A DNA stretch of 64,000 nt. Origin: Candidatus Moraniibacteriota bacterium (GTDB lineage Bacteria > Patescibacteriota > Minisyncoccia > Moranbacterales > UBA2206). The notes below the pieces were generated by a model, which was given only the letters and a program-made list of their open reading frames with translations, was not told where the DNA came from and searched no databases. Made by a program: the position numbers and the translations under genes. Shown in pieces: positions 10,785-53,546 of this stretch (the stretch's first letter is position 1; every line of letters starts with the position of its first letter). The stretch is taken from contig JAUSNP010000004.1 in the NCBI GenBank assembly GCA_030645735.1, positions 10,739 to 74,738 on the forward strand, written 5' to 3'.

Positions 10785-10875
10785 AATATGTGAGTGTTTT
10801 TATTTTTATTCTTATCCTATTATACCACAGAAAAGAGATGTTGCGGATGTGGATAACTTGGTTGTGTGAGAATCA

Positions 10876-10903: not shown

Positions 10904-10933
10904 TTTGGTTCCAATTCAGAAAATATATCTGAT

Positions 10934-11599: not shown

Positions 11600-11630
11600 A
11601 AATATTACATCCTACCTGAACCCGCCCATG

Positions 11631-11700
11631 CGGGAATTTCCAATTTCCAATTTCCAATTTCCAAACAATTTTCAATGACCAAATTTTCAATGACCAAAAC
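11631..11700. repeat. Hairpin plus short tandem repeats in the rplY upstream region
   Basis: A cccgcccatgcggg hairpin is followed by (TTTCCAAT)x4 and (ATTTTCAATGACCAAA)x2, read directly from the sequence. Confidence 0.8.
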
Positions 11701-11868
11701 TTTTTTAAATTTTGGAGGTTGTAATTTGAAATTTAGAATTTATTTGGTTATTGTATCTTGGTTATTGTATTTTCCGCTTCACGGTTTCCCCTCGGACATT
11801 AAAAAATTAATAACTAAACAAAAATCAGCTTTTTCAACTGTTTTATGATTTTACCAGCATTTAACGGC

Positions 11869-13957: not shown

Positions 13958-14394
13958 AATGCTCTTTTTTCGCAGTCCGTAAAGTCCCAAGTCCGTAAAG
14001 TTTTTAAAGTCACATACTTTATGGACTTTTGACTTTATAGCCTTTCGACTCTAGAACGCGTTTATAACTGGTGCAAAAAACAAAAATGAAAAGATCGCAA
14101 TCGCAATTACAGAGAAGATGATGAAGATAAACTTCAAGCTTTCTCCGTATTTTTTAGAATACGATTTCATATTATTATTGTCCATTGTAAATATACTAAT
14201 ACAACTATTTATTCAGTAGATCTTGTGCACTCAGTTGAATTTCGCCATAAGCAAACTTCAACCGAGATAGTTTAGAAACTATTAACCACTAACCCACGCA
14301 TAACGCGTAACGCATATCGTGAAACATATATGAAATACGTTCTACGATTTGCGCTCTACGATCTGCGATTTATTTAAATTTAAGAGTGTAATTT

Positions 14395-17570
<3,176 letters not shown>

Positions 17571-21200: not shown

Positions 21201-24200
21201 CTTTGTGAATCACTCGAATTTACTAAGAATCCCCAAGCATCCGTTCCTCCACTTTTTACATTCAGTTTCGCCCCCGGATTCGTCGTTCCTATGCCGACGT
21301 TGCCGTTTATATTATCTACCGCAAAGACCGTACCGGAGTTATCATATTTTTTGATGTAGCTAACACCATTAGTTTCAAGATGCGTTATTAATGTTGCTTG
21401 TCTATATAAATCCAGTCCCCCATATCCAGAACCGCTACTCGTATCCAATATCCTTGCATATGAGTAACTAGCATCACCAACGGAAAATTTAGCCAAAGGA
21501 TTCGTCGTCCCGATGCCGACGTTGCCGTTATTTGCTATTCTCATCCGTTCTACCTCTGAAGTATTTCCAGTACTAAAAGTGATTGGATAGGTTCCTCCTG
21601 CACCATATCCTCCAATCGCCCTTAATGTCAATCCATAAAATGATTCTATTCTGGAAGTAGGTCCACCTTTTATGCTGATATATTGATCTCCACTTTGAGT
21701 AGCTGATACCCTAATTCCACTGTCGCTAACCAGGTGCAGACTTGTACTTGGACTCACCGTCCCGATGCCGACGTTGCCGTTAGCTAAGACGTTTATGCCA
21801 GAACCAGCGGTGGCACCATAAAAACTTCCAATATTTATATAATTAGATGCGCTTCCGTCAGAAACATGATTATATGCAACACCACCCCTATTATTAGCCG
21901 ACGCTTCTTTACCAAGTACCATATAAGCATTTCCTCCATTGGAGATATTTGGCGTTAAGCCCTGCATGATTCCAATGGACCCTGCTGAAGTAACATTATT
22001 AGTTGCTATCATTATTGTATTAGCCCCTGAAAAAGAACCGGCCACGGATAAAGGGGATCCCGGACTCGTCGTTCCAATGCCGACGTTGCCTTCTGGAGTA
22101 ATCCGCATCTTTTCAGATGAACCTGGAGCAAAAATTTGGCCTACAGAAGAATACAAAAACGAACCTGCACTAGTAATATTGATTGACCCAGCTCTTGTGC
22201 CATCGCCCCAAGCTATTTTTTGAGATGCATATCCCGTAGAACCAACAGAACCTATTTGTAATGAAGATACTGGTGCCGTCGTCCCAATGCCGACGTTGCC
22301 ATTAGATGCCTTGATAAGCATGTTATTTATAACGGAAGAACCATTCCAACTTTTCCAACTATAATCAGCTGCTGCTGAATAAAAATTGTCAAAATAAACT
22401 TTTGTTCCGTTGGTCCATTCGAAAAACTGACTCGTGTCCGAAAAACGCAAATTACCATTGACTTCTAATTTTTGGTTTGGTGCCGTCGTCCCAATGCCGA
22501 CGTTGCCACCGGAAATAATCCTCATCGCTTCGGTTGTGCCCGGTGAAAAAATTATAGCACCCGTTGTTAGTGTATTAAGCGTGAAATTCGCTCCATTGGA
22601 TTGCGTCAAAATTCCATTAGCTCTTATATTTGTATCGGACCAGACCGAACCAGAACTGCGAATGTTACCTGTAACTTGCAATGGGTACCCCGGACTCACC
22701 GTCCCCACCCCCACATTCCCTGTTGTTGCATCCACAAAAAGTTTTCCTGAGTTAACATTCAAGTTGCCAGCCAAATCTAGGCTACCTGTTCCATACACAT
22801 TTCCATCCACATGCAATCGGTAACCATTCGCATCATTAGACCCAATCGCCACATCCCCCGTCTCTCGGTAAATATTCCCGCCTGATTCTCCCCACCAATT
22901 GGCGTTGACTGAGCCAGGAGTTAGATAGGCTCCATTAGTTGCGTCATAGAAATTGGTAGCTCTGACCGTGCCAGCTACTTCCAACTTAGTGGTCGGAGTG
23001 ATGCCAATACCCACATTGCCAGCAAGATTGTAAGCTACATCCGAACCAGTCTTGGTCCAGAAGTTTTCACCCAATTTTAATCCGTTCCAATAGACATCTC
23101 CAGCTACATTGTAAAGCTTGTCGACAGTGTCAACTGGCGCGGTGGTTTGGCGCAAATGCACGCGACCGTTGATGTCGAGAGTTTCGGTGGGAGTGTTAGT
23201 CCCCATTCCAATGTTGCCAGTTTCGCGATAGATATTGCCTGCGGTTTCTCCCCAGTAGTTAGTTGAGACACTATCAGAAGTTAGATAGATGCCACCCGGC
23301 AACATAAAGGCATCCGCTTTGACGGTGCCAGTCACTTGCAGTTTGGTGCTCGGACTATTGGTGCCAATACCTAGACGTTTGTCAGTGTTGTTCCAAAACA
23401 GTTCTGAGTCAGAGGCAAATGTGCCGTTGTCATTCCATTGCAATTGCCCCGTGGTGCCACCTGGGATGATTTTGGCTGTCCAACTCAAATTGCCATTGCC
23501 GTCAGTGGCAATGAGTTGATCCGCGCTACCATCACTAGTTGGCAGCGTGTAGGCGCCAGCAATGAGAATCGTCTCAACATGCAAGGTGCCTTGCACTTCG
23601 GCGTCGTTGGAAATCACTAAATCGCCAGTCTGAGTTAGACCGTGTTTGGAATTGTTGTTGCCAATGAAAATAGGTGAAGCGCCGATTAGACGATGGGCGT
23701 AGATGGTGTTCCAGCTTTTGCTAGAGTTACCAAGATTGTAGGAGAGATTATCATTAGGAATAATATCCTTGGTAGTGGTGGTACCTTCTACTGTTAAATC
23801 GCCTTCACTCCCTGAGAGAGTTAGGGCGCCACTGATTTCTCCGCCATCACTGGAAACTTTGCCATTGATAGATTCGGTTAGATTTTTGGAAGTGTCAGTG
23901 ATAGATTGGGTAAGCGTTTCTTTGCTGGAAGCAATAGTTTTGGACAGATCTGTTCTGGTTGAATCCAAAGCGCCAGAGAGATTGTCAGAAGTTTTGTTGA
24001 TGGCGCTTTTAGCTAGATTGAAAAAGGAACTGTTAGCTTGCAGTTGTTCACCCGAAAGTTTTGTCAGAGCAATCCTGCCTTGACTCACCGTGAACATACC
24101 ATCAGCCACTGCGTCCGTGATTGGATAGAAAGCTTGCGGGTAGGTGAAGACGGAAAATAGCAAGAGGAAAATGAAAATGAAGAAAGTGGCGTAGAGACTT

Positions 24201-24610
24201 TTTCTCGTTAGTTGTTTGACTGTTTGCTGATAAGTGCCTCGACCGATTTGATAGAGCCGGATGACATAGGTGATGAGTCCGATGGCCAGGGTGATCACTG
24301 CTACATACGCAGCCAGAAAAAAATATGTTTCTAAGGAAAAGAAGTTGCGAAAAATAGTGAAGAAATTTAGCAATGGCGCCCAAGCATTTGGAAAAAAGAC
24401 GATAAACAGAATGAGGATAGCGAGGGAGAGTTTGAAAGCCAGCTTCAAGAAAAAGCCATGTTTTACGAGAGCTTCATACAGAATGTGATCTTTGCGGTTT
24501 TTAATGTATAGCCAGAGAGCAAAGGAGATAAGTAGAATAAAGGGTGAAACAGCAATGGTGCTGGTGATCAGATTAGCCAGTGATTCATATTGAGAAAGGA
24601 ATTTGAGCAA
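18281..24610 (-). CDS. Giant surface protein 2 (2109 aa). It has an N-terminal multi-TM anchor, about 15 GNVGIGTT(S/A/N)P beta-helical repeats, and ends in the conserved C-terminal module.
   Basis: A long ORF. Its N-terminal module (GEISGALTLSGSEGDLTVEGTTTTKDIIPNDNLSYNLGNSSKSWNTIYAHRLIG...) is homologous to that of giant protein 1. It carries repeated DNA 24-mers cgtcgtcccgatgccgacgttgcc. The C-terminal roughly 330 aa is shared with the other two giant proteins. Confidence 0.8.
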   Translation of the reverse strand: MLKFLSQYESLANLITSTIAVSPFILLISFALWLYIKNRKDHILYEALVKHGFFLKLAFKLSLAILILFIVFFPNAWAPLLNFFTIFRNFFSLETYFFLAAYVAVITLAIGLITYVIRLYQIGRGTYQQTVKQLTRKSLYATFFIFIFLLLFSVFTYPQAFYPITDAVADGMFTVSQGRIALTKLSGEQLQANSSFFNLAKSAINKTSDNLSGALDSTRTDLSKTIASSKETLTQSITDTSKNLTESINGKVSSDGGEISGALTLSGSEGDLTVEGTTTTKDIIPNDNLSYNLGNSSKSWNTIYAHRLIGASPIFIGNNNSKHGLTQTGDLVISNDAEVQGTLHVETILIAGAYTLPTSDGSADQLIATDGNGNLSWTAKIIPGGTTGQLQWNDNGTFASDSELFWNNTDKRLGIGTNSPSTKLQVTGTVKADAFMLPGGIYLTSDSVSTNYWGETAGNIYRETGNIGMGTNTPTETLDINGRVHLRQTTAPVDTVDKLYNVAGDVYWNGLKLGENFWTKTGSDVAYNLAGNVGIGITPTTKLEVAGTVRATNFYDATNGAYLTPGSVNANWWGESGGNIYRETGDVAIGSNDANGYRLHVDGNVYGTGSLDLAGNLNVNSGKLFVDATTGNVGVGTVSPGYPLQVTGNIRSSGSVWSDTNIRANGILTQSNGANFTLNTLTTGAIIFSPGTTEAMRIISGGNVGIGTTAPNQKLEVNGNLRFSDTSQFFEWTNGTKVYFDNFYSAAADYSWKSWNGSSVINNMLIKASNGNVGIGTTAPVSSLQIGSVGSTGYASQKIAWGDGTRAGSINITSAGSFLYSSVGQIFAPGSSEKMRITPEGNVGIGTTSPGSPLSVAGSFSGANTIMIATNNVTSAGSIGIMQGLTPNISNGGNAYMVLGKEASANNRGGVAYNHVSDGSASNYINIGSFYGATAGSGINVLANGNVGIGTVSPSTSLHLVSDSGIRVSATQSGDQYISIKGGPTSRIESFYGLTLRAIGGYGAGGTYPITFSTGNTSEVERMRIANNGNVGIGTTNPLAKFSVGDASYSYARILDTSSGSGYGGLDLYRQATLITHLETNGVSYIKKYDNSGTVFAVDNINGNVGIGTTNPGAKLNVKSGGTDAWGFLVNSSDSQRLAGIYEESDTRATFAFYNATDSQTIRLDTGGNSYFNGGNVGIGTTAPGSKLHIAGGDFQIGPVGGSQIYLRGITGGDLSFNRNPSTGVISNASAFSYQLHRTESTTAESDYLGWQVYNPAGAGVTTSALVINGNGNVGIGTTSPVSQFQIDGVSAGIRLRRNAGNEPFILLTNTTETSGGQIRGLDGAYGLRFTDPFSAEYMRINSSGNVGIGTSAPGAKLDVNGTTLTSKLSSWGSTYTSGGNYLFTNSFGGATIEQTPPMNDYIGNQLMFADAKGFAITSSGSISSVSSAFRQGDTYATITNTTLPIVVEVTGSIPSDTDVGSQRVFLQAHGNISGHLLVEIKKFDDTWVTLADEDISIASKAYWFSQPVTNVAPYPAAWAIKGVRYSITSLTEATTYIRQLGWYKKNGFIYPFLSEYNPSAYGNLTFNQTGNHDITASSGTLRLGTHTLLGAVTGNAQSITGLGQLTVDNLRIDGNTIDATSGAITISPTAGSNLNIGLSGAGDFAVNTNQLYVDTSAGNVGIGTTSPTYNLHVVGNAFVSTVMNQNQLSVGAIGGLSGVRAYVLTASDTVKGLVIRANSATQSANLQEWQDSVGNVLSVVDKNGNIGIGTVTPTAKLDVVGQAIASDGFIQKTNAGACTDALFTTDTDGQICLDSTAGVERMYFRTGGAWSYIAKTGGFQIPNYEVAPLNQLSQSTLKGVTPNELTHFQNYLTQQITPGELLIPYADSTLQDGAIHGLYARFADVKNQMFQEEKTQIENLNLQVTGNITTVAELKNSINTQLGSIEKSLSEITNNQDTITKQISNINTQITNDEIRIATLENLATTLQAQITTLQSQIATPVNIAQIDANTQSIDYLNQLLGITPTSKVGDITIVGKLTSQITETGLLTIAVNDKTAATIGEAIIKAGDTSVKVDTTAISADSKVFVTSEKPVEIGVNTIQKGASFKIEIGKVLLEDLQINWWIVDKK

Positions 24611-24874: not shown

Positions 24875-27800
24875 TTATTTAGAATCAACCAACCACCAGT
24901 TGAATTTCAGATCTTCAACCGAAGGAATTTTAATTTTCACGATAAAGCCCTCTCCGGCATTTATCTTTGTAACGGCCAACGGTTGATCAGTGACTATCAT
25001 TGAAGTCACAAAAACCTTGCTATCCCCACTCACCGCTTTCGTGTTGACTGTCACCGAAGTATCCCCAGCCTTGATAGTGGCTTCTCCGATAGTAGCCTTG
25101 TCTTTGTTTTTTGGATCGACGGTGATGATGATGGAGCCAGTCTCAGTGATTTGCGAGGTCAATTTACCAACAATTGTAATGTCGCCAGCCTTGCTAGTGT
25201 CTGTGATGCCTAGGAGTTGGTTCAAATAATCTATGGATTGGGTGTTGGCATCAATCTGGGCGATGTTGACCGGTGTAGCAATTTGGGATTGCAAGGTGGT
25301 GATTTGTTGTTGAAGAGTTTCTGTTATTGTCTGTAGAGACGCAATATTTTGCGTCTGTGCGTTGATTTGATCATTGATATTTGAAATTTGTTTGGTGCTT
25401 GTATCTTGGTTATTGGTTATTTCGCTTAGACTTTTTTCAATCGAACCAAATTGGGTGTTAACAGAATTTTTTAGTTCTGCCACTGTGGTGATGTTGCCCG
25501 TGACTTGCAGATTTAGATTTTCAATCTGCGATATTTGCTCTTGGAACATCTGATCTTTCACATCGGCAAATCTGGCATAGAGTCCATGGATAGCTCCGTC
25601 TTGAAGAGTGGAGTCAGCGTATGGGATGAGGAGTTCTCCAGGAGTGATTTGTTGAGTTAGATAGTTTTGGAAATGAGTGAGTTCATTGGGAGTGACACCT
25701 TTGAGGGTGTTTTTAGAAAGTTGGTTAAGTGGGGCGACTTCGTAGTTGGGAATTTGGAAACCTCCAGTCTTAGCAATATAGCTCCAAGTGCCTCCAGTTC
25801 TAAAGTAGAGTCTTTCAGTGCCTAGGGTTGTATCAAGACAAGTGAGGCCGTCAGTAGCTGTGGTGAAAGTTAAATCAGTACAAGCGCCGGCGTTGGTTTT
25901 TTGGATGAAGCCGTCGGAGGAGGTGGTTTGGCCGACAACATCCAGCTTGGCAGTTGGATTGCTTGTACCAATCCCAATATTTCCAGCGGATGTTATTCTC
26001 ATTTGCTCTGCAACAACAGTGCTACCAGTTCTAAAAACTAAATCAGTTGGAACACTATCAGCAACTACAGTTCCATTTACTATTGCAAAAATAGTAGCTC
26101 TCTGCGTATAGGCTGTTCCATATCCAAAAAAACCTACAGAACCAATATAGTCTCCATTAGCTAAAGTAGATGGTGACAATATTGTCCCCCTTGATTTTCT
26201 TAGATTTAAAAGTGCAGAATGTACGCTTGAAGCATGTTGTGACGAAGTTATACCTCTGTCTGCACTAACAGTGTCAGAAGATGTTACATGTAATTCTCCA
26301 ACTGGAGAATTAGTACCAATACCAACATATCCAGTCGTACTATTAACAATAAAATTGTGTGAGTTAGTCCCTCTGCTTACCAAAAAACCTTTGTTTGCTG
26401 GGATATAAAATCCTGCATACGCTCCCTCCAATGTAAAAGAATCATTAATTCCTACTTGAAAATCTGCATTTTCTGTCCATGCTGTTGGTTTAAATCTTAG
26501 CGCTGGATAAGTTGAAGAAAGTTTTATATTACCAAGTATGTCTAATTTTTCAGCAGGGACAGTTACACCCATTCCTATTCTCCCATTACTTGTTATTCTC
26601 ATACCCTCGACTGGTGTACCCGCACTATAAGAATTTAGCAATAATGAAGATGTATTATCTGCCCCAACTCTTAACGCCTGAATTGAACCAACAGCATTCG
26701 CTACACCAGCACTATCTTTAATTTGGAAAGTGAGAGAAGAGCCAAATCCATCAACCATATCACCTGACGTAGTGTGTCTTACAAACAAAGCTGAAGCTAC
26801 GGAATTTGTAATAGCAGTTGCCCTTTCTAGCGTAATTATTTCAGAAGCACCACTAATTACATGTAACTTGCTTTCAGGAGCAGTCGTGCCGATGCCGACG
26901 TTGCCAGTTGGTTTAATTGTCATAGCAGTAATCTCGGCAGTATTAGAAGAGACTCTAAATTGCATGTTTGCTGGATTATAAAAAGTAGAACCAGCAGTGC
27001 CATCTTGTTGAACAATAATTCTAGCAGCTTGACCAAAAGTATTAACAGAAGTAACTCCGCCAAATTGAAAAATACCTAAATAATCTCCATCTTGTGTTGT
27101 AACCATAGAACCAGCTGTTGTTCCACGTGTTTTTAACCAACTTCCATAGGAAGCATTACCATCATTACCAAATTTTGTAATTTGAAATTGGTCTCCTAAA
27201 CCACTACCAGCTACTTCTAGTTTATATGCGGGCGCCGTCGTCCCGATGCCGACATATCCGTTTGTTCTTAGTAAAGTCATTACCGTGGATTTTAAAGCAC
27301 CTGCGTCCGTTCGACTGACAAATTCTAAATTTGTGCCAACATCGCTACCAGATTCTGCTACACTATTTGCTCTGATTATCCACCTAGAAAGTCCCCCTGA
27401 AGAAAACATCAAATCACGTGACTGTCCCGCTGCCGAATTAATCATAGCTGATACATATCCACCGTTACCATCTACCTGCAGTAAAGATGTGGGCGTTGCT
27501 GTTCCAATACCAACACTACCATTGAATGCCACTATGTCAGTTGAAAAATCTCCATAAATCAAAGGCGAGGCAGTGTTAGAGTTGTCGATATATAATTTGT
27601 TTGAACCAGTTTCGCTGTAGCCAGACTTATATCCAATAAATATATTGCCTGAACCAAGTACTGAATATCCAGCTTGGTAGCCAACTCCTGTATTATAGTT
27701 GCCAATGATGTTGGAGTAGAGAGTATCCACACCATTAGCAGTATTGAAGGAGCCTGTGGTATTAGAAAAAAGAGTATGCCTACCATTGGCAGTATTATAG

Positions 27801-30800
27801 GAACCTGTGGTATTGACATAGAGAGCATTCATACCATTGGCGGTGTTTTGAAGCCCCGTAGTGTTAGTATAGAGTGCTTGTCCACCATTGGCAGTATTTT
27901 CTTGGCCCGTAGTATTGAATCGGAGAGCTCTATATCCATTAGCTGTATTTACGCCACCCGTAGTATTAGAGTTTCCAGCCTGATAACCCGTGAAAGTATT
28001 CCAATTTCCCGTATTAACATTCCCTGCTTGATAGCCAAGAAAGGTTGAAAATCTTGCATCATCAAAATTAATCAGTCCACTAACTTGCAAGCTATTATTT
28101 GGCGTTGTAGTTCCAATGCCGATGTTGCCTGTTGCATTTACTACCGTTAATAAAGCTGTGCCGCTTGAATTACTAACAATTATATTTCCACCTAACTCTG
28201 GTGCAAATAAAAAATTATTGCTGTTGTCGATTCCAAAATACCCCTGACGAGCCGTATTATTATAAAATTCGATATAATTCCAACCGCCCGTGGTCTTACG
28301 CAATCTAATAGGATTATCAGTTGTGCTCGAAATTTCTAATTTTGCCCCTGGCGTCGTTGTCCCGATGCCAACATTTCCACTGCTTGCTTGAATATACATA
28401 CGATCAGTGGCACCGGCGTTGAATCGCATATTTATTGAATTAGCCGAGCCCATACTTAGTGTGCCGCTAGTGCTATTTCCATCATGCGTAAAAAGCGCAG
28501 CCCCGCCAAGACGGACATATTGATTCTGAGCTAGATTTAAATCGCCACCGCCAATGTCCAACTTGTATGCTGGATTCGTCGTTCCAATTCCAACATTGCC
28601 TCGCAAAATTGTTTCCACGACAGAGGCGTTGCCCAGCACTACTTGATTGCTAGCGGTGGTATAGGCGCCATTGCCCAGTGCCATGGAATTTGTAGCATCA
28701 ACTTTTTGCGAAGCATTGTTGCCAGCACTATTTCCCAAAAATGTATTGTATGTCCCAGTTGTAATTGAAAATCCAGATTGATAGCCCATAGCCGAATTGT
28801 TATCAGCAATAGTATTGCGCAAAGAATATGGACCAATTGCTACATTTGAAGAACCCAAGACATTCATTCTAAGCGCTTCTGAACCAACTGCTACATTATA
28901 TGCTCCAGAAGTATTGGCATACAGAGTATATGAACCAATTGCTGTATTCATCATCCCCGTGTTATTTGGCCCAAGAACATAAACTCCCAAAGCAGTATTA
29001 TAATTGCCAGTATTATTGACACTCGCTCCAGCGCCTATCAATGTTGAGTTCTTCGCACTATCAAAATTAATCAATCCTGCCACCTGCAAAAGATTATTTG
29101 GCGTAGTCGTGCCAATACCCAAGCTTCCATTGACGGCCAAAATATTGGTTGAAAAATCTCCATAAATCAAAGGCGTGGCCGTGTTGGAATTGTCGATATA
29201 CAATTTGTCTGATCCAGTTTCGCTGTAACCAGCTTGGTAACCAAGAAAGATGTTGCCAGAGCCAAGCGCTGAATATCCAGCTTGATAACCAAAGCCAATA
29301 TTATTGCTGTTGGTACTAATGTTCCTAAGAGTTTCCTGGCCTATGGCATAATTATTAGAACCAGTCGTGTTTGAAATAAGCGCATACAAGCCAATAGCGA
29401 TATTACTGTTTCCAGAAGTATTTGAATAAAGAGCCATATTGCCCATGGCGGAATTATATGATCCAGTAGTGTTAGAATACAATGCCAGTGGCCCAAAGGC
29501 AGAATTATATGAGCCAGTAGTATTAGAAAAAAGGGCGCTATTTCCCAAAGCTGAATTATAAAATCCAGCAATGTTTGCACGAAGCGCTTGGTTTCCTAGA
29601 GCTGAATTATAACCACCTGTAGTGTTTGAAAAGAGAGCTAGATAGCCAATTCCCGTGTTATCATTATTCGTCAAATCATCCACTTTTCCAGCATCTTCAC
29701 CGAAATAGGTTGACCGTCCTAGCCCAGTTTGTGAAACCCGTCCGTTAATGGTTAGTTTTGCTCCAGCAGTTGAAGCGCCGCTAATTCCTACTGTGCCATT
29801 TATGGTCAGTGCATCGGTTGAAAAATCTCCATAAATCAAAGGCAACGCTGTATTGGAATTGTCGATATACAATTTGTTTGAACCAAGTTCATTATAGCCA
29901 GCGTTATAGCCAACAAAAATATTGCCCGAACCAACAGAATTTTGAAATCCTGCCCCATTGCCAACACCAACGTTGCTATTTCCAGTAGTATTGCCCCGCA
30001 AAGCATCTACGCCGACAGCCGAGTTATAGCTACCCGTCGTATTGGAATAAATAGCATACACTCCGAAAGCAGAGTTGTATCCACCAGCAGTATTATATCT
30101 GAGAGCTCTCATCCCAAACGCAGAATTACTCCAGCCATCAATGTTATACATCATGGACTGATAACCTACAGCTACATTATTTTGACCAGCAGTATTGCGA
30201 TTAAGAGTTTGATATCCGACTGCAATATTATTTGAAGCTGTATTACTATAAAGAGTACCTGTTCCAATGGCAATGTTATAACCACCTGTGTTAGAATATA
30301 GCGCCTGATATCCCACAGCTATATTGTCTTGACCCGTGGTATTTAACGCCCCAGCCTGATAGCCCACAAAGGAGTTATGAATTCCAGCATTCGCATTCCC
30401 CGCTTGATAACCAAGGCTTGTGGAATATAGGGAGTTATTAAAATTTATAAGTCCCGCTACTTGAAGAAAATTATTTGGCGATGAAGTTCCAATGCCAAGA
30501 TTACCAGCAAAATATCCATTACCGCTAGCATCGAGCTTGAATTTATTGACGCTATTAACATTGAAATCCAAGAAGTCGCCACTGAATGAGCCAGAGCCGT
30601 TGGCGAAATTCATATTGATACCATCTCCAGAAAAAGCGGAGGTTGTCTGAGATAAACTCAAAGCATTTCCGGTTGTTACTCCACTCTGATATAAATATAT
30701 CCCGCTTGAACCTGATGCAACAGTCGATAACTCAAGCGCGGTATTGCTTATATTTTGATTTATTGTAAGGGCTGCGCCTTGTGCATTGTTTGTAAAAACT

Positions 30801-32218
30801 GCCCTGCCTCTTGGCGCAATAGTGAAAACATCCCCACCACCGAGAGTTGCAGGTTGTGATATTTTAAAGACACTCTGGCTAACTCCTTCCTTCCCTTGAA
30901 TATGCAGATTGGCGGATGGCGTACTCGTCCCAATCCCCACATTCCCCTCAGCATAAATATTTTTCACATTCAAATCCCCCAACTCCTCCGTATTCTCTCT
31001 TTGAAATAAGTTAAATTGTGACAGAGTGGCGTCCCAGACCAAGGCTGCATAGCCGTTTAGGCTCGAGCGATAGAAACGCAAGCCCATAGTTTCATCAACT
31101 GTTGAATCAGTGTTGATGGCAAAGTATTCACTGGTAGTTCCGTTTAGGTCTGTTCCACCTACACTCATGTTGTCTACATACAAGCTAGACCAGTGATTGG
31201 TAGCTGAGCCCAAATTAAGTCCCGTGGTTGATGGAATCAAATTGGAATTGATGGTCACATTCTCACCCGAGGTTCCCAGTGTGGCCTCACCATTGATGAT
31301 GAGTGATCTAGCATTGATAGTTCCAGCAACATCCAGCGCATAGGCAGGATTGTCTACGCCGATGCCGACATTGCCGTTGTTTAAAATCACCATCCGTTTA
31401 ACATCGGCGATTTTGATGAAAACATCACCTATGCCATCGGCGTTGGAGTCAGCGATGACCAATGCGTCGTCCGTATTGGAAATGTTTTGAGAAGAGATCA
31501 AATCTCCCCAAGCCGGCAAGCCGTTGATGACGCTTAGGACTTGTCCATTAGTACCAATTTTTAAATTAGACAGTGTGTTAGCAGCTGAAGCAAAAAGGGT
31601 GTCGCCGACGGTGTAGGTGGTGAGACCAGTGCCACCAAAGTTTGTGGTGACAGCATCGCCTTCCCAGGTTCCCGTGGCAATCACGCCGAGCGTTGTGATG
31701 CTGGGTAGAATTTTAGCATCGATCTTTCCACCTTTAGCTAGTTGCACAATGTTGCCTTCGGCTGTGCCAAGAGTGGCGCCACCGACTGAGTAGGAATCTG
31801 AAGCCAATGGCACAGCACCAATCTTTTTTCTGGGCACCATTTCACTGTCTGTGTTGATGCGGATACCGATGTAGTAATCATTTTCAGAAAAGTTCAAATC
31901 GGCCGGCAAAGGAGTTTCTTCCCCGAGGAAAGCGCCGATAGAACCGTTTTCAATTTTCACCTTTTGGGTTTCCTCCCAAACTCTGGCTCCAGCATCAGCA
32001 TTAGATGGATAACCATCTGTCTTTGTGCGGTCAGTGGTGTAAATGGCAAAACGGATGTCATATTCCCCATTGGGAATTTCTTTGTTTTTGTTGTTGAGGA
32101 TGTAGGCGGAGACATCGAGTTTTTTGATGGCTTGCGCGTGATTGGAAAAAAACAAAAGACTGCCTACTGTTGTTAGTAGAGCGACAGTTGCAATTAGTTT
32201 TGTTTTTGTTCTAAACAT
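24875..32218 (-). CDS. Giant secreted surface protein 3 (2447 aa). It has a signal peptide, tail-fibre-like NTxG/AxG beta-helical repeats, and ends in the conserved C-terminal module.
   Basis: The N-terminal signal peptide is MFRTKTKLIATVALLTTVGSLLFFSNHAQA. There are long runs of the YxSxxGxxAL..NTTGxxN(T/S)A.G repeat type seen in phage tail-fibre/beta-helix proteins. The SGDFLDF module and the C-terminal roughly 330 aa are shared with giants 1 and 2. Confidence 0.8.
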   Translation of the reverse strand: MFRTKTKLIATVALLTTVGSLLFFSNHAQAIKKLDVSAYILNNKNKEIPNGEYDIRFAIYTTDRTKTDGYPSNADAGARVWEETQKVKIENGSIGAFLGEETPLPADLNFSENDYYIGIRINTDSEMVPRKKIGAVPLASDSYSVGGATLGTAEGNIVQLAKGGKIDAKILPSITTLGVIATGTWEGDAVTTNFGGTGLTTYTVGDTLFASAANTLSNLKIGTNGQVLSVINGLPAWGDLISSQNISNTDDALVIADSNADGIGDVFIKIADVKRMVILNNGNVGIGVDNPAYALDVAGTINARSLIINGEATLGTSGENVTINSNLIPSTTGLNLGSATNHWSSLYVDNMSVGGTDLNGTTSEYFAINTDSTVDETMGLRFYRSSLNGYAALVWDATLSQFNLFQRENTEELGDLNVKNIYAEGNVGIGTSTPSANLHIQGKEGVSQSVFKISQPATLGGGDVFTIAPRGRAVFTNNAQGAALTINQNISNTALELSTVASGSSGIYLYQSGVTTGNALSLSQTTSAFSGDGINMNFANGSGSFSGDFLDFNVNSVNKFKLDASGNGYFAGNLGIGTSSPNNFLQVAGLINFNNSLYSTSLGYQAGNANAGIHNSFVGYQAGALNTTGQDNIAVGYQALYSNTGGYNIAIGTGTLYSNTASNNIAVGYQTLNRNTAGQNNVAVGYQSMMYNIDGWSNSAFGMRALRYNTAGGYNSAFGVYAIYSNTTGSYNSAVGVDALRGNTTGNSNVGVGNGAGFQNSVGSGNIFVGYNAGYNELGSNKLYIDNSNTALPLIYGDFSTDALTINGTVGISGASTAGAKLTINGRVSQTGLGRSTYFGEDAGKVDDLTNNDNTGIGYLALFSNTTGGYNSALGNQALRANIAGFYNSALGNSALFSNTTGSYNSAFGPLALYSNTTGSYNSAMGNMALYSNTSGNSNIAIGLYALISNTTGSNNYAIGQETLRNISTNSNNIGFGYQAGYSALGSGNIFLGYQAGYSETGSDKLYIDNSNTATPLIYGDFSTNILAVNGSLGIGTTTPNNLLQVAGLINFDSAKNSTLIGAGASVNNTGNYNTALGVYVLGPNNTGMMNTAIGSYTLYANTSGAYNVAVGSEALRMNVLGSSNVAIGPYSLRNTIADNNSAMGYQSGFSITTGTYNTFLGNSAGNNASQKVDATNSMALGNGAYTTASNQVVLGNASVVETILRGNVGIGTTNPAYKLDIGGGDLNLAQNQYVRLGGAALFTHDGNSTSGTLSMGSANSINMRFNAGATDRMYIQASSGNVGIGTTTPGAKLEISSTTDNPIRLRKTTGGWNYIEFYNNTARQGYFGIDNSNNFLFAPELGGNIIVSNSSGTALLTVVNATGNIGIGTTTPNNSLQVSGLINFDDARFSTFLGYQAGNVNTGNWNTFTGYQAGNSNTTGGVNTANGYRALRFNTTGQENTANGGQALYTNTTGLQNTANGMNALYVNTTGSYNTANGRHTLFSNTTGSFNTANGVDTLYSNIIGNYNTGVGYQAGYSVLGSGNIFIGYKSGYSETGSNKLYIDNSNTASPLIYGDFSTDIVAFNGSVGIGTATPTSLLQVDGNGGYVSAMINSAAGQSRDLMFSSGGLSRWIIRANSVAESGSDVGTNLEFVSRTDAGALKSTVMTLLRTNGYVGIGTTAPAYKLEVAGSGLGDQFQITKFGNDGNASYGSWLKTRGTTAGSMVTTQDGDYLGIFQFGGVTSVNTFGQAARIIVQQDGTAGSTFYNPANMQFRVSSNTAEITAMTIKPTGNVGIGTTAPESKLHVISGASEIITLERATAITNSVASALFVRHTTSGDMVDGFGSSLTFQIKDSAGVANAVGSIQALRVGADNTSSLLLNSYSAGTPVEGMRITSNGRIGMGVTVPAEKLDILGNIKLSSTYPALRFKPTAWTENADFQVGINDSFTLEGAYAGFYIPANKGFLVSRGTNSHNFIVNSTTGYVGIGTNSPVGELHVTSSDTVSADRGITSSQHASSVHSALLNLRKSRGTILSPSTLANGDYIGSVGFFGYGTAYTQRATIFAIVNGTVVADSVPTDLVFRTGSTVVAEQMRITSAGNIGIGTSNPTAKLDVVGQTTSSDGFIQKTNAGACTDLTFTTATDGLTCLDTTLGTERLYFRTGGTWSYIAKTGGFQIPNYEVAPLNQLSKNTLKGVTPNELTHFQNYLTQQITPGELLIPYADSTLQDGAIHGLYARFADVKDQMFQEQISQIENLNLQVTGNITTVAELKNSVNTQFGSIEKSLSEITNNQDTSTKQISNINDQINAQTQNIASLQTITETLQQQITTLQSQIATPVNIAQIDANTQSIDYLNQLLGITDTSKAGDITIVGKLTSQITETGSIIITVDPKNKDKATIGEATIKAGDTSVTVNTKAVSGDSKVFVTSMIVTDQPLAVTKINAGEGFIVKIKIPSVEDLKFNWWLVDSK

Positions 32219-32915: not shown

Positions 32916-32989
32916 GAGTGGATTATACCATTTTTTTGCTTGCAGAACAATGATTTTTAGATAAGTTATCCACAGTTATACGCAAACAA

Positions 32990-33020
32990 AAAAATCTGAC
33001 CAGAAGGGTCAGATTTTTAA
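32990..33020 (-). terminator. Intrinsic terminator downstream of gyrB
   Basis: aaaaaaatctgacc-agaag-ggtcagattttt. Confidence 0.6.
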
Positions 33021-33043
33021 AAATTTATAAACTAAATCTGTAC

Positions 33044-35128
33044 TTATACATCCAGATTTTTTACACTCTTAGCGTGAGTCTGAATAAATCGGCGCCGCGG
33101 TTCAACTTCTGAACCCATCAAAACATCAAACATCTTGTCAGCCGCTTCCGCGTCTTCAATGTTCACTTGCAACATCAAGCGATGCGCCGGATCCATGGTG
33201 GTATCCCAAAGTTGTTCTGGATTCATTTCTCCGAGACCTTTATAGCGTTGAATATTGATGCCGAGTGCCTTTTCTTCAGTGAGTTCCTCTGCTTCACCCT
33301 CTTCGCTATCAGTTTCCATAGTCATATTTTCCTCCACGGTCTTCAATGCTTCCAAAGCATCATCTTCATCCTTTTTGTCCTTCTTGTCTTTTTTAGTTTT
33401 GGCCAAAGTGGCTTTTATTTTTTCAATGGCCACAACTTTTTCTTCATCCGTGAAAACATATTGCACATCTTTGCCTTTTTGAATTCGGTAGAGCGGTGGT
33501 TGGGCAATATAAATAAATCCGCTACGAATCAACGGTTCATAATAACGATAGAAAAAAGTCAAAAGCAAAGTTCGAATATGTGATCCATCAACATCGGCAT
33601 CGGCCATGATGATGATTCGATGATATCTCAATTTATCAATATTGAAACTTTCGCCAATGCCTGCTCCCAGCGCGATGATGATTGGCTTCAAGGTGTCAGA
33701 TTTCACCACCTTGTCCAAAGTAGTTTTTTCCACATTCACCAATTTTCCACGCAATGGCAAAATGGCTTGGAATTTTCGGTCGCGTCCTTGTTTAGCTGAA
33801 CCACCAGCAGAGTCTCCCTCTACAATGTACAATTCAGTTTCAGCTGGATTTCGTGAAGAACAATCAGCCAATTTTCCTGGAAGAGTCATGCCTTCCAAAG
33901 CGCCTTTGCGAATCACGGCATCCTTAGCGGCGCGTGCTGCAATTCTGGCTTTGCAGGTCAACAAACATTTACCAATGATTGCCTTGGCATTGTTAGGATG
34001 TGATTCAAGATAATCTGCCAACGCTTCCGCCATCACACTCGAAACTGCGCCACGCATTTCTGAATTGCCCAACTTAGCTTTGGTCTGTCCTTCAAATTGC
34101 GGGTTGCGCAATTTCACACTGATAACCGCTGTCAAACCTTCTTGCAAATCTTCGGCTGTCAAATTTTCTTCTTTTTCTTTAAGAATATTATTTTTTCTAG
34201 CATAGGCATTCACCACGCGCGTCAAAGCAGTGCGGAAACCGACTTCATGCATTCCACCCTCTGGCGTAAAAATGTTATTGGCAAAAGAAAAAACATGCTC
34301 TTTATAACTGTCCGTATATTGCATAGCAATTTCCACCACTGTATCAGTCGTGTCATCTTTCTTTTCTACATAGAAAGGCAATTCATTCTTGATTTCCTTG
34401 CCACGATTTAAAAATTTGATAAATGAAACCAGTCCTCCATCAAACAAAAAGCCATAAGCCCGTTCCTTGCCAGCTTCTCGACTATCATAAACTTTGATGG
34501 TGATGCCTTTGGTCAAAAAAGCTTGGTGCCTGACATAGCCCAAAATCTTTTCCCAGCTATATTTTATTTCTGGGAAAATTTGCGGGTCAGCTTGAAAAGA
34601 AATAGTTGTTCCAGTCTTGTCAGATTTGCCAGTCACTTTTGGTTCCTTGCTTTTTGGCACACCGCGTTCAAATTCCATCGCATACACTTTGCCATCACGA
34701 CGCACTTCCGCCTTGGTCCAAACTGACAACGCATTCACCACGGACACACCCACACCATGCAAACCACCAGAGATTTTGTAGCCATTGCCACCAAATTTTC
34801 CTCCAGCATGCAAAACGGTCAACACAGTTTCCAAGGTTGATTTTTTAGTTTGCGGATGAATTTCAACTGGGATTCCACGACCATCATCCGAAATTTCTAC
34901 CAAATCGTTTGGCAAAAGTTTAATGATAATATCTTTTCCATAACCCGCCATCGCCTCATCGATGGAGTTATTAATAACCTCCCAAATCAAATGATGCAGA
35001 CCTTCAGTTGAAGTTCCACCAATATACATTCCGGGGCGTTTGCGCACTGGCTCTAGTCCCTCCAAGACCTGGATGGAGCTAGCAGTGTACCCGCCATTAT
35101 CTTTTTTTAATTCTTTTTCTTTAGCCAT
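33044..35128 (-). CDS. gyrB: DNA gyrase subunit B (type IIA topoisomerase ATPase subunit). It carries an acidic/lysine-rich low-complexity insertion near the C-terminus.
   Basis: The GHKL ATPase N-terminus is ...VRKRPGMYIGGTS..GLHHLIWEVINNSIDEAMAG.... The TOPRIM segment is ...ELYIVEGDSAGGSAKQGRDRKFQAILPLRGK.... The C-terminus is ...GLGEMNPEQLWDTTMDP.... Confidence 0.9.
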   Translation of the reverse strand: MAKEKELKKDNGGYTASSIQVLEGLEPVRKRPGMYIGGTSTEGLHHLIWEVINNSIDEAMAGYGKDIIIKLLPNDLVEISDDGRGIPVEIHPQTKKSTLETVLTVLHAGGKFGGNGYKISGGLHGVGVSVVNALSVWTKAEVRRDGKVYAMEFERGVPKSKEPKVTGKSDKTGTTISFQADPQIFPEIKYSWEKILGYVRHQAFLTKGITIKVYDSREAGKERAYGFLFDGGLVSFIKFLNRGKEIKNELPFYVEKKDDTTDTVVEIAMQYTDSYKEHVFSFANNIFTPEGGMHEVGFRTALTRVVNAYARKNNILKEKEENLTAEDLQEGLTAVISVKLRNPQFEGQTKAKLGNSEMRGAVSSVMAEALADYLESHPNNAKAIIGKCLLTCKARIAARAAKDAVIRKGALEGMTLPGKLADCSSRNPAETELYIVEGDSAGGSAKQGRDRKFQAILPLRGKLVNVEKTTLDKVVKSDTLKPIIIALGAGIGESFNIDKLRYHRIIIMADADVDGSHIRTLLLTFFYRYYEPLIRSGFIYIAQPPLYRIQKGKDVQYVFTDEEKVVAIEKIKATLAKTKKDKKDKKDEDDALEALKTVEENMTMETDSEEGEAEELTEEKALGINIQRYKGLGEMNPEQLWDTTMDPAHRLMLQVNIEDAEAADKMFDVLMGSEVEPRRRFIQTHAKSVKNLDV

Positions 35129-35140
35129 ACTGATAAAATT

Positions 35141-35290
35141 ACAAATTCAAAATTACAAATATCAAACAAATTCAAAATTACAATTTTCAAAATTCAAAAC
35201 AATTTTGAATTTCAATTTTTGGTTATTGTGATTTATTTGGAATTTGAGATTTTGAATTTTGGATTTAACAAATTATAAATTTTTAAAAAA
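35141..35290. repeat. Intergenic palindromic repeat element, about 130-150 bp, copy 1 (MITE/REP-like)
   Basis: It shares the blocks caaaattacaattttcaaaattcaaaa and ttggttattgt(g/a)(a/g)tttatttggaatttgagattttg(a/g)atttt with 51233-51362. The two halves are roughly reverse-complementary. Confidence 0.7.
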
Positions 35291-35295: not shown

Positions 35296-35667
35296 CTACT
35301 CCCTAGATACAAAATAAAACTCTATCAAAAATATTCCTGCCAACAACAATAATCCATCCCACCAAACTAGCAATCTCAGGCTTTGCAAAATCAGAAGTCC
35401 AATCGCAAACAATGCCAACAACATTCCCTGTCGAAAACTAAGTCCGACATTGGAAAAAGCATTTTCCATATCCACATTTTTTCTACGTAACCACAACAAC
35501 AACAGATTGAAAAGCCCACTCAGAGCAAAAAACAAACTGCAATAAAAAAGCAATTTGCCCGCCACACCTGTCGCATCTGGATCAACGAATTTGACCACAA
35601 AAACAAATGCCACAACTGAAAGCAAAGTTACCAAACGAATGCCCCAAATGTATGATTTTAAGGTCAT
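35296..35667 (-). CDS. Small integral membrane protein (4 TM helices), hypothetical
   Basis: A 123-aa hydrophobic ORF. Confidence 0.45.
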   Translation of the reverse strand: MTLKSYIWGIRLVTLLSVVAFVFVVKFVDPDATGVAGKLLFYCSLFFALSGLFNLLLLWLRRKNVDMENAFSNVGLSFRQGMLLALFAIGLLILQSLRLLVWWDGLLLLAGIFLIEFYFVSRE

Positions 35668-49420: not shown

Positions 49421-50878
49421 TTATTTAGTTGCGATTTCGTATGCATGCGCCGCACGCAAGAGATTTTCTTCATCAAACCATTTGCCCATCAGCTGAAAGC
49501 CTTGCGGTAATTGTTTGCCGTCTACCTCCACTGTCGGCCCAGGCACACTGATTGCTGGCACACCTACAATGTTAGCTGTAATAGTAAAGATATCTTCCAG
49601 ATACATTTGAATTGGATCAGCCGTTTTTTCTCCAAATTTGAAAGCAGGACTTGGGGTGGTCGGCGTCAAAATCAAATCCACCGCCTCAAAGGCTTTTTCA
49701 AAATCTTGCTTAATCAAGGTTCGCACTTTTTGGGCTCGTAAATAATATGCGTCATAATATCCTGAGGACAAAGCATAGGTTCCCAACATTATACGTCTTT
49801 TTGGTTCAGCACCAATTCCATATCGTCTTGAGTCTAGGTATGTTTCAATGAGATTCCGATCTTCTGGCAAAAAGTCAAGCTGAGTATCTTCATGGTCTTC
49901 CGCGCGCATACCAAATTTCACCCCATCAAAGCGCGCCAGATTTGAACTCACTTCACATGGCATAATAATATAATAAACTGGCAAAGAATATTTCGCATTT
50001 GGCAATTCAATTTCTTTAATCTCGGCGCCCAGTTCGCGATATTTTTCCACCACTTTTTCAAAAGAAATTTTCACTTCGCCCGTCAATTTTTCTAAATAAT
50101 CTTTGACGACTCCAATCTTGAGTCCGGAAACTTCTCCAGTCAGATATTTAGTATAATCCTTAGCTGGGCTTTGTGCGCTAGTTGCATCCATTTTGTCTTC
50201 ACCAGAAATCACGCTCAAAATTATTGCCGCATCTTCCACGGTTTTAGTGATTGGTCCGATTTGATCCAAACTTGAAGCCATAGCAATGGCGCCATAACGA
50301 GAAACCCGACCATAAGTGGGCTTGAGTCCCACCACGCCACAAAATGACGCTGGTTGGCGAATTGAGCCCCCAGTGTCAGTTCCCAACGCCCAAACAGCCT
50401 CGCCTGAAGCCACTGATGCCGCTGAACCGCCTGAAGAACCTCCTGGCACTCGCTCCAAATCTACTGGATTTTTAGTTGAACCATAAGCGCTCTTCTCGGT
50501 GGAAGAACCCATCGCAAATTCATCCATATTCGTTTTGCCCAAAAACACTGCTCCAGCCTCCTCGAGCTTTATAACCACTGTTGCGTCAAAGGGCGCAATG
50601 TAATTATCCAAAATTTTTGAAGCTGCCGTCGTCCGCACACCTGTCACACACAAATTGTCCTTAATCGCTCCAGGGATACCTTCTATCATTCCAATTTCAA
50701 CTCCTGCCGCAATTTTTTCATCCACTTTTCTGGCCTGCTTCAAAGCCAGTTCTTTGGTCAAAGTTAGATAGGCATTTAGATTTTTATCCTGCTCCTTAAT
50801 GCGCGCAAAATATTCTTCAGTCAATTGAACTGAAGTAATCTCTTTTGAAATTAATTTATTGTGAAGCTCTTTAATCAT
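49421..50878 (-). CDS. gatA: Glutamyl/aspartyl-tRNA amidotransferase subunit A (amidase signature family)
   Basis: The amidase signature is ..GGSSGGSAASVASG.. and it is preceded by ..KDNLCVTGVRTTAASK... The start is placed at MIKELHNK, because the upstream in-frame extension lies inside a tandem repeat. Confidence 0.9.
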   Translation of the reverse strand: MIKELHNKLISKEITSVQLTEEYFARIKEQDKNLNAYLTLTKELALKQARKVDEKIAAGVEIGMIEGIPGAIKDNLCVTGVRTTAASKILDNYIAPFDATVVIKLEEAGAVFLGKTNMDEFAMGSSTEKSAYGSTKNPVDLERVPGGSSGGSAASVASGEAVWALGTDTGGSIRQPASFCGVVGLKPTYGRVSRYGAIAMASSLDQIGPITKTVEDAAIILSVISGEDKMDATSAQSPAKDYTKYLTGEVSGLKIGVVKDYLEKLTGEVKISFEKVVEKYRELGAEIKEIELPNAKYSLPVYYIIMPCEVSSNLARFDGVKFGMRAEDHEDTQLDFLPEDRNLIETYLDSRRYGIGAEPKRRIMLGTYALSSGYYDAYYLRAQKVRTLIKQDFEKAFEAVDLILTPTTPSPAFKFGEKTADPIQMYLEDIFTITANIVGVPAISVPGPTVEVDGKQLPQGFQLMGKWFDEENLLRAAHAYEIATK

Positions 50879-50948
50879 GAAGCATGAAACATGAAGCATG
50901 AAACAATTTTATTTTTTGTTACATGTTTTATGTTGTATGTTATATGTT

Positions 50949-51230
50949 TTATAATATAGACTTAACTTTCCCAAAATTATCTTTCTTATCTGGAAACAAA
51001 TTTATTATTTCAGCCTTATTCTCAAACTCGCTCATCTTATCTTCCCGCAGCCGATTCTGCATCCCAGTAATATGCGCCGTCGGTTCTACGCCAGAAACAT
51101 CAACCTCTTTCAACTCTTCAATCCAATCCAAAACAGCTGACAAGTCAGTTGCAAATTTTTCCAAATCTTTTTCGTCAACGCCAATGCGGGCTAGACCAGC
51201 AATGTGTTGAACTTCTTCCTTACTTAACAT
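50949..51230 (-). CDS. gatC: Glutamyl/aspartyl-tRNA amidotransferase subunit C
   Basis: A 93-aa protein reading MLSKEEVQHIAGLARIGVDEKDLEKFATDLSAVLDWIEELKEVD.... It lies immediately upstream of gatA. Confidence 0.8.
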   Translation of the reverse strand: MLSKEEVQHIAGLARIGVDEKDLEKFATDLSAVLDWIEELKEVDVSGVEPTAHITGMQNRLREDKMSEFENKAEIINLFPDKKDNFGKVKSIL

Positions 51231-51232
51231 AA

Positions 51233-51362
51233 ATTACAAATTCAAAATTACAAGCTCCAAATAAATTCAAAATTACAATTTTCAAAATTCAAAATAGTTT
51301 TGGATTTTAGATTTTGGTTATTGTAGTTTATTTGGAATTTGAGATTTTGGATTTTAGATTTA
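51233..51362. repeat. Intergenic palindromic repeat element, copy 2, homologous to 35141-35290
   Basis: Near-identical blocks aaattcaaaattacaattttcaaaattcaaaa and ttggttattgtagtttatttggaatttgagattttggattttagattt. Confidence 0.7.
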
Positions 51363-51368
51363 AAATTA

Positions 51369-53546
<2,178 letters not shown>

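Follow-up and report, generated by a model that had tools for sequence, protein, structure and literature searches.

Hairpin repeats in operon spacers of a Candidatus Moranbacteria genome, with one arm read in frame in ligA and a possible link to rRNA intervening sequences

We analyzed a stretch of 64,000 nucleotides (nt), here called the window, from contig JAUSNP010000004.1 of a metagenome-assembled genome of Candidatus Moranbacteria (Patescibacteria, or candidate phyla radiation, CPR; GC content 40%), in which nearly all genes lie on the minus strand. The subject of this work is a hairpin-forming repeat that occupies two of its intergenic spacers, one upstream of gyrB and the other between ligA, which encodes the NAD-dependent DNA ligase, and gatC (Table 1). 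The initial annotation had noticed two nearly identical AT-rich elements at these places, and the alignment bore this out, as copies 1 and 2 were 88.7% identical over 133 nt with no gaps (blastn E-value of 1.8e-37), and the identity dropped abruptly at both ends. The extent first given for copy 1, 35141-35290, had to be redrawn: the element is there, but its true span is the 133 nt at 35136-35268, and the remaining 27 nt are ordinary spacer, which is also found in the related locus L201. Both copies are closely packed between their neighbors; copy 1 ends 7 nt from the gyrB ATG (35128), and copy 2 directly adjoins the gatC ATG (51230, 0 nt) and lies 5 nt from the ligA stop codon (51369-51371). 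The gene pair around copy 1, gyrB and an open reading frame (ORF) for a predicted membrane protein of 123 amino acids (aa), is syntenic in relatives.

Table 1. Positions of the repeat copies and of the other features discussed (window numbering, unless a locus is named).
Feature	Coordinates	Strand or orientation	Description and setting
Element copy 1	35136..35268		133 nt, ~16% GC hairpin repeat; spacer between the 123-aa membrane ORF and gyrB
Element copy 2	51231..51363		133-nt hairpin repeat; fills the ligA-gatC spacer
Diverged third copy	11640..11761	reverse orientation	spacer from ftsW/rodA to ribosomal protein L25
Half-copy (one arm) in ligA	51794..51868	minus	in frame, ~residues 561-579; splits HHH_2
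Smaller hairpin of 7-nt units	50876..50950		different sequence family; gatC-gatA spacer; units catgctt/aacatat
ligA	51369..53543	minus	NAD-dependent DNA ligase, 724 aa; hosts the half-copy; upstream of copy 2
gatC	50949..51230	minus	directly downstream of copy 2
gyrB	33044..35128	minus	directly downstream of copy 1
Predicted membrane ORF	35296..35667	minus	123 aa, no Pfam match; upstream of copy 1
PF05635 ORF loci outside rRNA	L041 4580-5060; L047 4210-4700; L072 1180-1680; L075; L090		
23S and 5S rRNA genes	13841-17563		23S of 3182 nt vs 2925-position model
Insert in 23S rRNA helix 45	16239-16333	minus	95 nt
Giant paralogous ORFs	6285-10784; 18281-24610; 24875-32218	minus	1499, 2109 and 2447 aa
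ttggttattgt block in the giant ORFs	6778-6846; 18753-18821; 25359-25427		in frame
Palindrome coding the LigA zinc-finger loop	52198-52250	minus	26-nt arms, 92% complementary, 1 nt apart; in frame; unique within the window

The spacers that hold copies 1 and 2 are the most AT-rich of the window (17-20% GC vs 23-53% in the others), and the remaining ~20 spacers showed no resemblance to them. A 20-mer, TTATTTGGAATTTGAGATTT, had exact matches at 35233, 51328 and 51826 in the whole window, the third of these being within ligA, and it was not found in 100 shuffles, even when two mismatches were allowed. The two elements are of low complexity (16-20% GC), and gapped alignment of any two such hairpins gave about 83% identity over the aligned columns, both of which could speak for a chance likeness of AT-rich spacers, with the ligA linker as an ordinary low-complexity region. 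Our first identity metric, which counted aligned columns only and made gaps cheap, indeed put everything at ~83%, and it was replaced by a strict metric. With the latter, the window pair (0.88) was the most similar pair, against a between-genome median of 0.61 and a 99th percentile of 0.81. This result, along with the ungapped match over 133 nt, the threefold occurrence of the 20-mer and the different appearance of the other spacers, refuted the chance explanation.

A profile built from the two copies recovered a third, diverged copy in reverse orientation (E-value of 5e-10); under the strict metric, its identity to copies 1 and 2 was in the range of 61-67%. Relatives of a ttggttattgt motif had already been noticed near 11.7 kb, and they belong to this copy. 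Beside it (~11610-11665) stand four tandem units, (ggaaatt)x4, and a small hairpin rich in GC, cccgcatgggcggg. As a separate observation, not mentioned in the initial annotation, three giant paralogous ORFs contain the ttggttattgt block in frame as well. These ORFs have in common C-terminal blocks that are 77-90% identical, as well as many internal repeats (..CCGATGCCGACGTTGCC..). At the C-terminus, they have a coiled-coil-like segment, SLSEITNNQDTITKQISNINTQ, and 69 nt of the DNA coding for it match the intergenic copy at 11.7 kb with 77% identity, a 25-nt block, TTTGGTTATTGTATCTTGGTTATTG, included.

Copies 1 and 2 folded as one long imperfect hairpin on either strand, with z-scores of -3.6 to -7.0 against dinucleotide shuffles, and none of 200 shuffles gave an equal or better fold, in agreement with the earlier remark that their left and right halves are approximately reverse-complementary. 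Whichever strand is read, A and C dominate the 5' arm, which is nearly devoid of G, and T and G dominate the 3' arm, which is nearly devoid of C. A property not recorded before is that each arm is periodic, with an autocorrelation of 0.58-0.66 at a lag of 7 nt and further peaks at 14 and 21, and the same period was found in the ligA piece and in the 11.7-kb copy. Each arm can be written as about nine degenerate heptamers (ACAAATT/CAAAATT and their complements), and the two are joined by a tiny loop, CAAAAC.GTTTTG. A hairpin scan based on RNAfold only was too permissive (391 hits), and it was filtered by GC content and 7-nt periodicity. When RNAalifold was applied to a 37-sequence MAFFT alignment, no consensus structure was obtained because heptamer arms misalign in register; this was replaced by a pairing test with a 16-sequence alignment of relatives and a named structure. 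In the proposed register, 83.7% of the cells were paired, and this fell to 58% at a slide of 1 and to 28-40% at slides of 2-3.

For the site of copy 2, 80 LigA loci of related Moranbacteria were then compared, which gave 59 distinct ligA-gatC spacers. Eighteen of the 59 were 0-24 nt long, 33 measured 60-165 nt and six exceeded 200 nt; within the group of 33, 28 folded with z < -2, and 16 showed the 7-nt period in each half. In L001/L119, the closest LigA relative (78% identity), the spacer has 24 nt, compared with 138 nt in the window, and the filled spacers carry very different hairpin units (tacgaat, caaaatt, ttgacca, cacaaag and some GC-rich types). The gyrB site varied as well: it is empty, with a 20-nt spacer, in L203 (GyrB identity of 89%), contains the element of copy 1 in L201/L202 (91%; 137/167 identical positions over the spacer and 111/133 over the core) and is occupied by an unrelated 102-nt hairpin in L199 (96%). 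Moreover, the related Moranbacterium L203 has two copies of a different family, a 'ctctacgaat' hairpin (ctctacgaattacgaatt...), at 2628-2759 and 3042-3161, which fill the ligA-gatC and gatC-gatA spacers, respectively; each begins directly after the stop codon TAA, and they are identical at 111/111 positions, which argues for copy-and-spread and not for chance. The elements are thus gained, lost, replaced and copied between non-homologous sites, because empty sites, turnover at one site and near-identical copies at different sites within one genome were all observed.

The variety of units by lineage at the ligA-gatC site, along with the strong 7-nt periodicity, would also fit growth in place with no mobility, where a small intercistronic hairpin expands by slippage of 7-nt units, template switching within the palindrome maintains the complementarity of the other arm, and each lineage develops its own units. 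In agreement with this, a mini-hairpin with a tacgaat unit, ccgatacgaatcgg, is already present in the 'empty' 24-nt spacer of L001, an intermediate 64-nt version of the ligA-gatC spacer is present in L122, and no target-site duplication, transposase or covariation signal was found, as described below. Independent local growth cannot, however, yield near-identical copies at non-homologous sites, as found in the window and in L203, and it does not account for one family with sharp ends at unrelated loci of several genomes or for the PF05635 ORFs enclosed by arms of the same sequence that are described below. We therefore regard growth in place as quite improbable.

In other Patescibacteria, several full-length copies per genome were found, with sharp ends and unrelated flanks. 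One assembly gave three copies in L003, plus L099, and another gave L052/L055/L113; these were 80-87% identical to the window copies by the strict metric. A dispersed family within Patescibacteria is solidly supported. The proposal of the initial annotation, a family of palindromic intergenic elements similar to miniature inverted-repeat transposable elements (MITEs) or repetitive extragenic palindromic (REP) sequences, is supported by the sharp ends, the unrelated flanks, the several copies of ~130 nt per relative genome and the empty and filled sites. It had also advised defining the termini and any target-site duplications; the ends proved sharp, but no duplication was seen at 20 aligned copies or at the L203 pair.

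In a species-representative genome collection, the 20-mer had more than 116 exact matches, and the window's own assembly was not among these matches. Among the matches listed, 89 of 117 were the 3' arm of a hairpin, with a median span of 120 nt and a median loop of 6 nt. The matches span many phyla and include isolate genomes and megabase contigs, so bin contamination is no explanation of the spread; examples are Niastella sp. OAS944, a 3.6-Mb Flavobacteriaceae chromosome, a 1.6-Mb Planctomycetia contig and a 309-kb Elusimicrobia contig. The scores obtained outside Patescibacteria are not independent evidence of homology because the loci were selected with the 20-mer, and a hairpin carries its own complement. 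Carriage by phages or viruses was rejected as a vehicle, as blastn gave no match in 50,697 phage records, and the 20-mer had 0 exact matches in the 2.9 million viral contigs of IMG/VR. With subscription journals outside our coverage, the literature held nothing specific on a prior description of this element in CPR, of heptamer hairpins or of PF05635 with inverted repeats. As a side observation, the arms of many relatives harbor small nested GC hairpins (ccgcc..ggcgg, cccgca..tgcggg), which surface in LigA orthologs as peptides of the PPEADQPLAD/ASPARLAAKRAGG type.

In some loci, ORFs of ~120 aa lie beside the arms, and the three that were scanned belonged to Pfam PF05635, the 23S rRNA intervening-sequence protein (E-values of 1e-14 to 4e-16). 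A profile search of all ORFs in 1.4 Mb of loci returned six ORFs of this type, and each of the six was directly flanked by an A/C-rich arm (..CAAATTCCAAATAAAT.., ..CAAATTCCAAATAAATCCAA-ATG) on one side and a T/G-rich arm (..TTATTTGGAATTTG..) on the other. The first ~9 codons (MTNIQNTKK) form part of the 5' arm. Five of the loci are outside rRNA (Table 1); the flanks were read in L041 and L047, where the cassette stands within an intercistronic spacer, and one of the six, L072, is from a CPR genome (Magasanikiibacteriota). In addition, the loop of a 150-nt hairpin in L019, an Elusimicrobia contig, keeps 24 nt coding for YDLEERTL, directly followed by the 3' arm. This peptide is the conserved N-terminal motif of the PF05635 ORFs, and such a relic would be expected after an internal deletion of the ORF. 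The PF05635 proteins resemble Avd, the accessory protein of diversity-generating retroelements (PMC10053308). Neither the window nor the LigA loci of Moranbacteria yielded a pre-existing four-helix-bundle gene.

PF05635 takes its name from the intervening sequences (IVS) of 23S rRNA, in which complementary termini form a stem, an S23p ORF lies in the loop, and RNase III cuts within the stem; the IVS has been called a selfish element, and excision by RNase III has been shown for that of Coxiella (PMC4990558). The window has its own rRNA insert: the loop of helix 45 of its 23S rRNA (~1218/1219 of the Rfam large-subunit model), which is a classical IVS site, contains 95 nt that form an extended hairpin (31-nt arms, 81% complementary) with no ORF. 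This insert is not of the heptamer type and does not belong to the family of copies 1 and 2. With regard to the rRNA genes themselves, no 16S gene was seen in the 46 kb upstream within the window, and therefore the rRNA operon appears to be unlinked.

The initial annotation had also reported a fragment of the element read in frame in ligA, and this was supported by the profile, whose positions 66-131, corresponding to the right arm, matched the 66 nt at 51794-51859 (E-value of 2e-5), in addition to the 20-mer at 51826. Its placement just before the BRCT domain did not hold. The insert (nt 51807-51863) interrupts HHH_2, as residues 537-559 of LigA match positions 1-23 of the 64 of this Pfam profile, and it sits ~70 residues before the BRCT domain, which starts at residue 651. 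An alignment of orthologs, which had been suggested as a check on the insertion, was made with 60 LigA sequences, and it showed that the segment is missing in many of them (..NLE-LVTSKKVKNL..), short in the closest relatives and present in related forms in others (EFPISNFQFPNKSQNSKLKIQNL, EIPNSKFQIPNKFQITKSKIQNL). One ortholog of ~71% identity (P0009/L002) carries a similar linker whose DNA matches the element profile (E-value of 1e-6), so the ligA insert is no recent jump from the neighboring copy. The insertion is thus genuine, although old, and it varies among the Moranbacteria orthologs. Only the A/C-rich arm was ever seen in the sense strand, where it codes for a K/N/Q/S/P/I-rich peptide with a period of seven residues, equal to three heptamers; the complementary T/G-rich arm would code for an F/L/W/G-rich one. 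Domestication of one arm as a putative surface loop in LigA is the best-supported reading of these data.

LigA has other places of this kind, which we report as observations in their own right. A second insertion hot spot at residues ~108-125 (~53169-53222) is hypervariable, and some orthologs have heptamer-type peptides, IPNSKSQITNKPQIQNSKNQ, there, and others VVEDGPRPRGRG-type segments. Another is the zinc-finger loop at residues ~433-452, which is coded by a near-perfect GC-rich palindrome (Table 1); many orthologs have no insert in this loop (CPICGGKVERK-GEAATYC), and others have different palindrome-like peptides (LEVRPL..KRGRTSE).

We then considered how the spacer copies relate to transcription. 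As candidate functions, a promoter and a terminator were rejected, since neither element spacer contained a sense-strand promoter (TTGACA/TATAAT) or a GC-rich stem followed by a T run. Other spacers of the window have textbook intrinsic terminators (GC stem and T run) and extended -10 promoters (TGnTATAAT), and 43 of 57 elements lie between co-directional ORFs. Because the element spacers are devoid of promoters and terminators that are clear elsewhere in the window, the elements most likely lie inside operon transcripts. A known RNA family was likewise rejected, as Rfam gave no match at the gathering score at the element sites and only noise at E <= 10. Two side observations concern gene starts in the window. 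For several genes (e.g., spacers 32916-33043, 10785-10933 and 59703-59773), TGnTATAAT is found only ~7-30 nt before the ATG, with no Shine-Dalgarno sequence, which suggests that mRNAs of this organism are leaderless or carry a very short leader. In gatA, the first ATG of the ORF (50899) falls inside the 3' arm of the smaller hairpin in the gatC-gatA spacer, and the longer ORF call is probably wrong because the conserved GatA N-terminus, MIKELHNKL, begins at the ATG at ~50878.

The position of the copies next to start codons raises the alternative of a cis-regulatory module selected by the host, with spread being secondary. It could work at the RNA level, as a site of RNA processing or stabilization or as a U-rich leader for translation of the adjoining gene, or at the DNA level, as a site for a nucleoid protein or gyrase, as proposed for bacterial interspersed mosaic elements (BIMEs). 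Both window copies abut ATGs (gatC at 0 nt, gyrB at 7 nt), many copies of relatives end at the ATG, the gyrB-site copy is kept between genomes with 91% identical GyrB, lineages of Patescibacteria show good conservation of the family sequence, and one copy precedes gyrB, whose expression responds to supercoiling in model bacteria. However, close relatives with intact operons have spacers of 20-24 nt, indicating that the element is dispensable, and it occurs in both orientations relative to the downstream gene. In tiny spacers of compact genomes, any insertion would abut a stop and a start codon. The lack of covariation, sense-strand folding bias (both described below), Rfam matches even at E <= 10, and sense-strand promoters or terminators in the element spacers also speaks against such a module, and we consider it unlikely.

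Collectively, the copies are best read as MITE-like, or Rickettsia palindromic element (RPE)-like, in behavior and IVS-like in architecture and ancestry. More specifically, we propose that they are non-autonomous, ORF-less derivatives of an IVS-like hairpin cassette, copied into spacers between co-directional genes, and we give this reading a probability of roughly 60%. In the mechanism that we envisage, ORF-less derivatives of PF05635 cassettes would be copied into the tiny spacers of co-directional genes and transcribed within operon messages. By analogy with the IVS, the stem of ~57 pairs would be a substrate of RNase III, and cutting would separate the cistrons, making the insertion tolerable; the element is thus probably co-transcribed and cut by this enzyme. 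Should an arm come to lie within coding sequence, it would survive only with its A/C-rich version in sense, because this version codes for a hydrophilic K/N/Q/S/P/I-rich loop, as seen in ligA.

Several results weigh against this proposal. No direct repeat and no common target was found at the 20 aligned copies and the L203 pair, where the AT-rich flanks make very short target-site duplications hard to exclude. A transposase-bearing parent was not found; the longer forms that were found carry the PF05635 ORF, and no genome-wide search for insertion sequences was made. The only 'loaded' form therefore contains an ORF for a four-helix bundle with no known role in mobility. In the ~76 kb inspected, the genome itself has two full copies, a diverged one and a half-copy, and no further copies were found in the ~12 kb beyond the window ends. 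The presence of different hairpin families at one site in close relatives could mean turnover in place. With regard to the loci of other phyla, these were picked by an exact 20-mer, and their full-length profile scores are thus inflated; the shared 'grammar' of 7-nt units across phyla could have arisen by convergence of low-complexity units. Finally, the structure tests gave null results: pairing among the 16 relatives was 83.7% compared with 84.0% in shuffles, and compensatory changes were not above those in shuffles, so that the pairing is explained by conservation of both arms, with no demonstrable selection on pairing itself. In the 43 elements between co-directional ORFs, the sense strand folded better in 20 and worse in 23 (p = 0.55). 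These two outcomes weaken the claim of a selected RNA structure; they do not run counter to a DNA-level repeat. Growth in place and a regulatory function may play a part, but the combination of near-identical copies at unrelated sites and empty orthologous sites is explained by neither of them.

A broader hypothesis, which we put forward only tentatively, is that hairpin cassettes form a much larger, pan-bacterial family, of which the rRNA IVS are only the members residing in rRNA. A cassette of this family would have two heptamer arms and either carry or lack a PF05635 (Avd-like four-helix-bundle) gene. The family would colonize operon spacers and essential protein genes in many phyla (Patescibacteria, Bacteroidota, Desulfobacterota, Elusimicrobia and Planctomycetes), its propagation would involve the small protein or processing by the host RNase III, and the window elements would be the ORF-less, MITE-like form. 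This possible unification with the rRNA IVS and the PF05635 family is the most valuable lead of the analysis. A tiny, tightly packed CPR genome here tolerates 130-nt hairpins in its operon spacers and hairpin-derived segments in an essential ligase. Should the copies indeed be ORF-less relatives of IVS, the biology of these sequences would extend from rRNA to mRNA and coding sequence, the unexplained multi-copy PF05635 family would gain a concrete handle, and part of the hypervariable low-complexity inserts in CPR proteins would be explained. On the practical side, repeats of this type break assemblies, create spurious ORFs or wrong start codons (e.g., gatA) and inflate the apparent divergence of proteins.

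When compared with known systems, the elements share features with several of them. Tandem heptamer arrays, the short tandemly repeated repetitive (STRR) sequences, are reportedly known from cyanobacteria, where Mazel in 1990 and Elhai in 2008 are said to have described them, the small dispersed repeats nested within them included. As a lead only, the likeness lies in intergenic arrays of 7 nt with small GC-rich hairpins nested in them, e.g., cccgcatgggcggg beside (ggaaatt)x4; the units and the phylum are different, and here the heptamers form the two complementary arms of one hairpin.

REP sequences, BIMEs and REPINs (REP doublets forming hairpins) are extragenic palindromes that are co-transcribed in operons, have an effect on mRNA processing or tolerate it, and undergo amplification within genomes (PMC3116915, PMC3184786). 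The window elements are likewise palindromes inside operons and amplified within genomes; however, they measure 133 nt with 16-20% GC, whereas REPs are GC-rich, 20-40 nt long and mobilized by REP-associated tyrosine transposases of an IS200/IS605-like type (RAYTs; PMC3116915, PMC3184786). No RAYT gene was seen in a window that was not scanned exhaustively, and no genome-wide search for one was made. Bacterial MITEs, such as Correia, ERIC, RUP and Nezha, are ~100-170 bp long, with inverted-repeat ends, and they are multi-copy, intergenic and co-transcribed, with presence/absence polymorphism (PMC3184786). The element agrees with them in being short (<300-400 bp), non-coding and multi-copy, with inverted-repeat arms and presence/absence between relatives. 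It differs in that no target-site duplication and no transposase-bearing insertion sequence sharing its ends were found, in that its longer forms carry a PF05635 ORF, and in that it is one whole hairpin and not two short terminal inverted repeats around a unique core.

The RPEs, of 105-146 bp, are found between genes and in frame within genes, where they are tolerated as a peptide, and they have no transposase (Ogata et al. 2000, listed in PMC3184786). A palindromic repeat of ~100-150 nt that is both intergenic and in frame within an ORF is common to both systems, with the window having only a half-copy in the latter setting. The host (Patescibacteria vs Rickettsia), the heptamer-periodic arms and the PF05635 link are differences, and as the organism is a Moranbacterium, we do not claim membership in the Rickettsia families RPE-1 to RPE-8.

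The closest architectural parallel is with the IVS of Leptospira and Coxiella (PMC4990558). The window copies differ from them in lying in mRNA spacers and a protein gene instead of helix 25 or 45 of the 23S rRNA, and in having arms of 7-nt units, which the helix-45 insert of the same genome does not have; cleavage by RNase III has been shown for IVS and would be expected here by analogy. In both systems, the complementary termini make a long stem, long forms hold a PF05635 ORF of ~120 aa in the loop, and short forms are hairpins of ~100-150 nt with no ORF, the group in which the window copies fall. Both are also AT-rich relative to the genome and sporadic in distribution, with IVS being regarded as selfish, and this genome, too, has a helix-45 insert in its own 23S rRNA.

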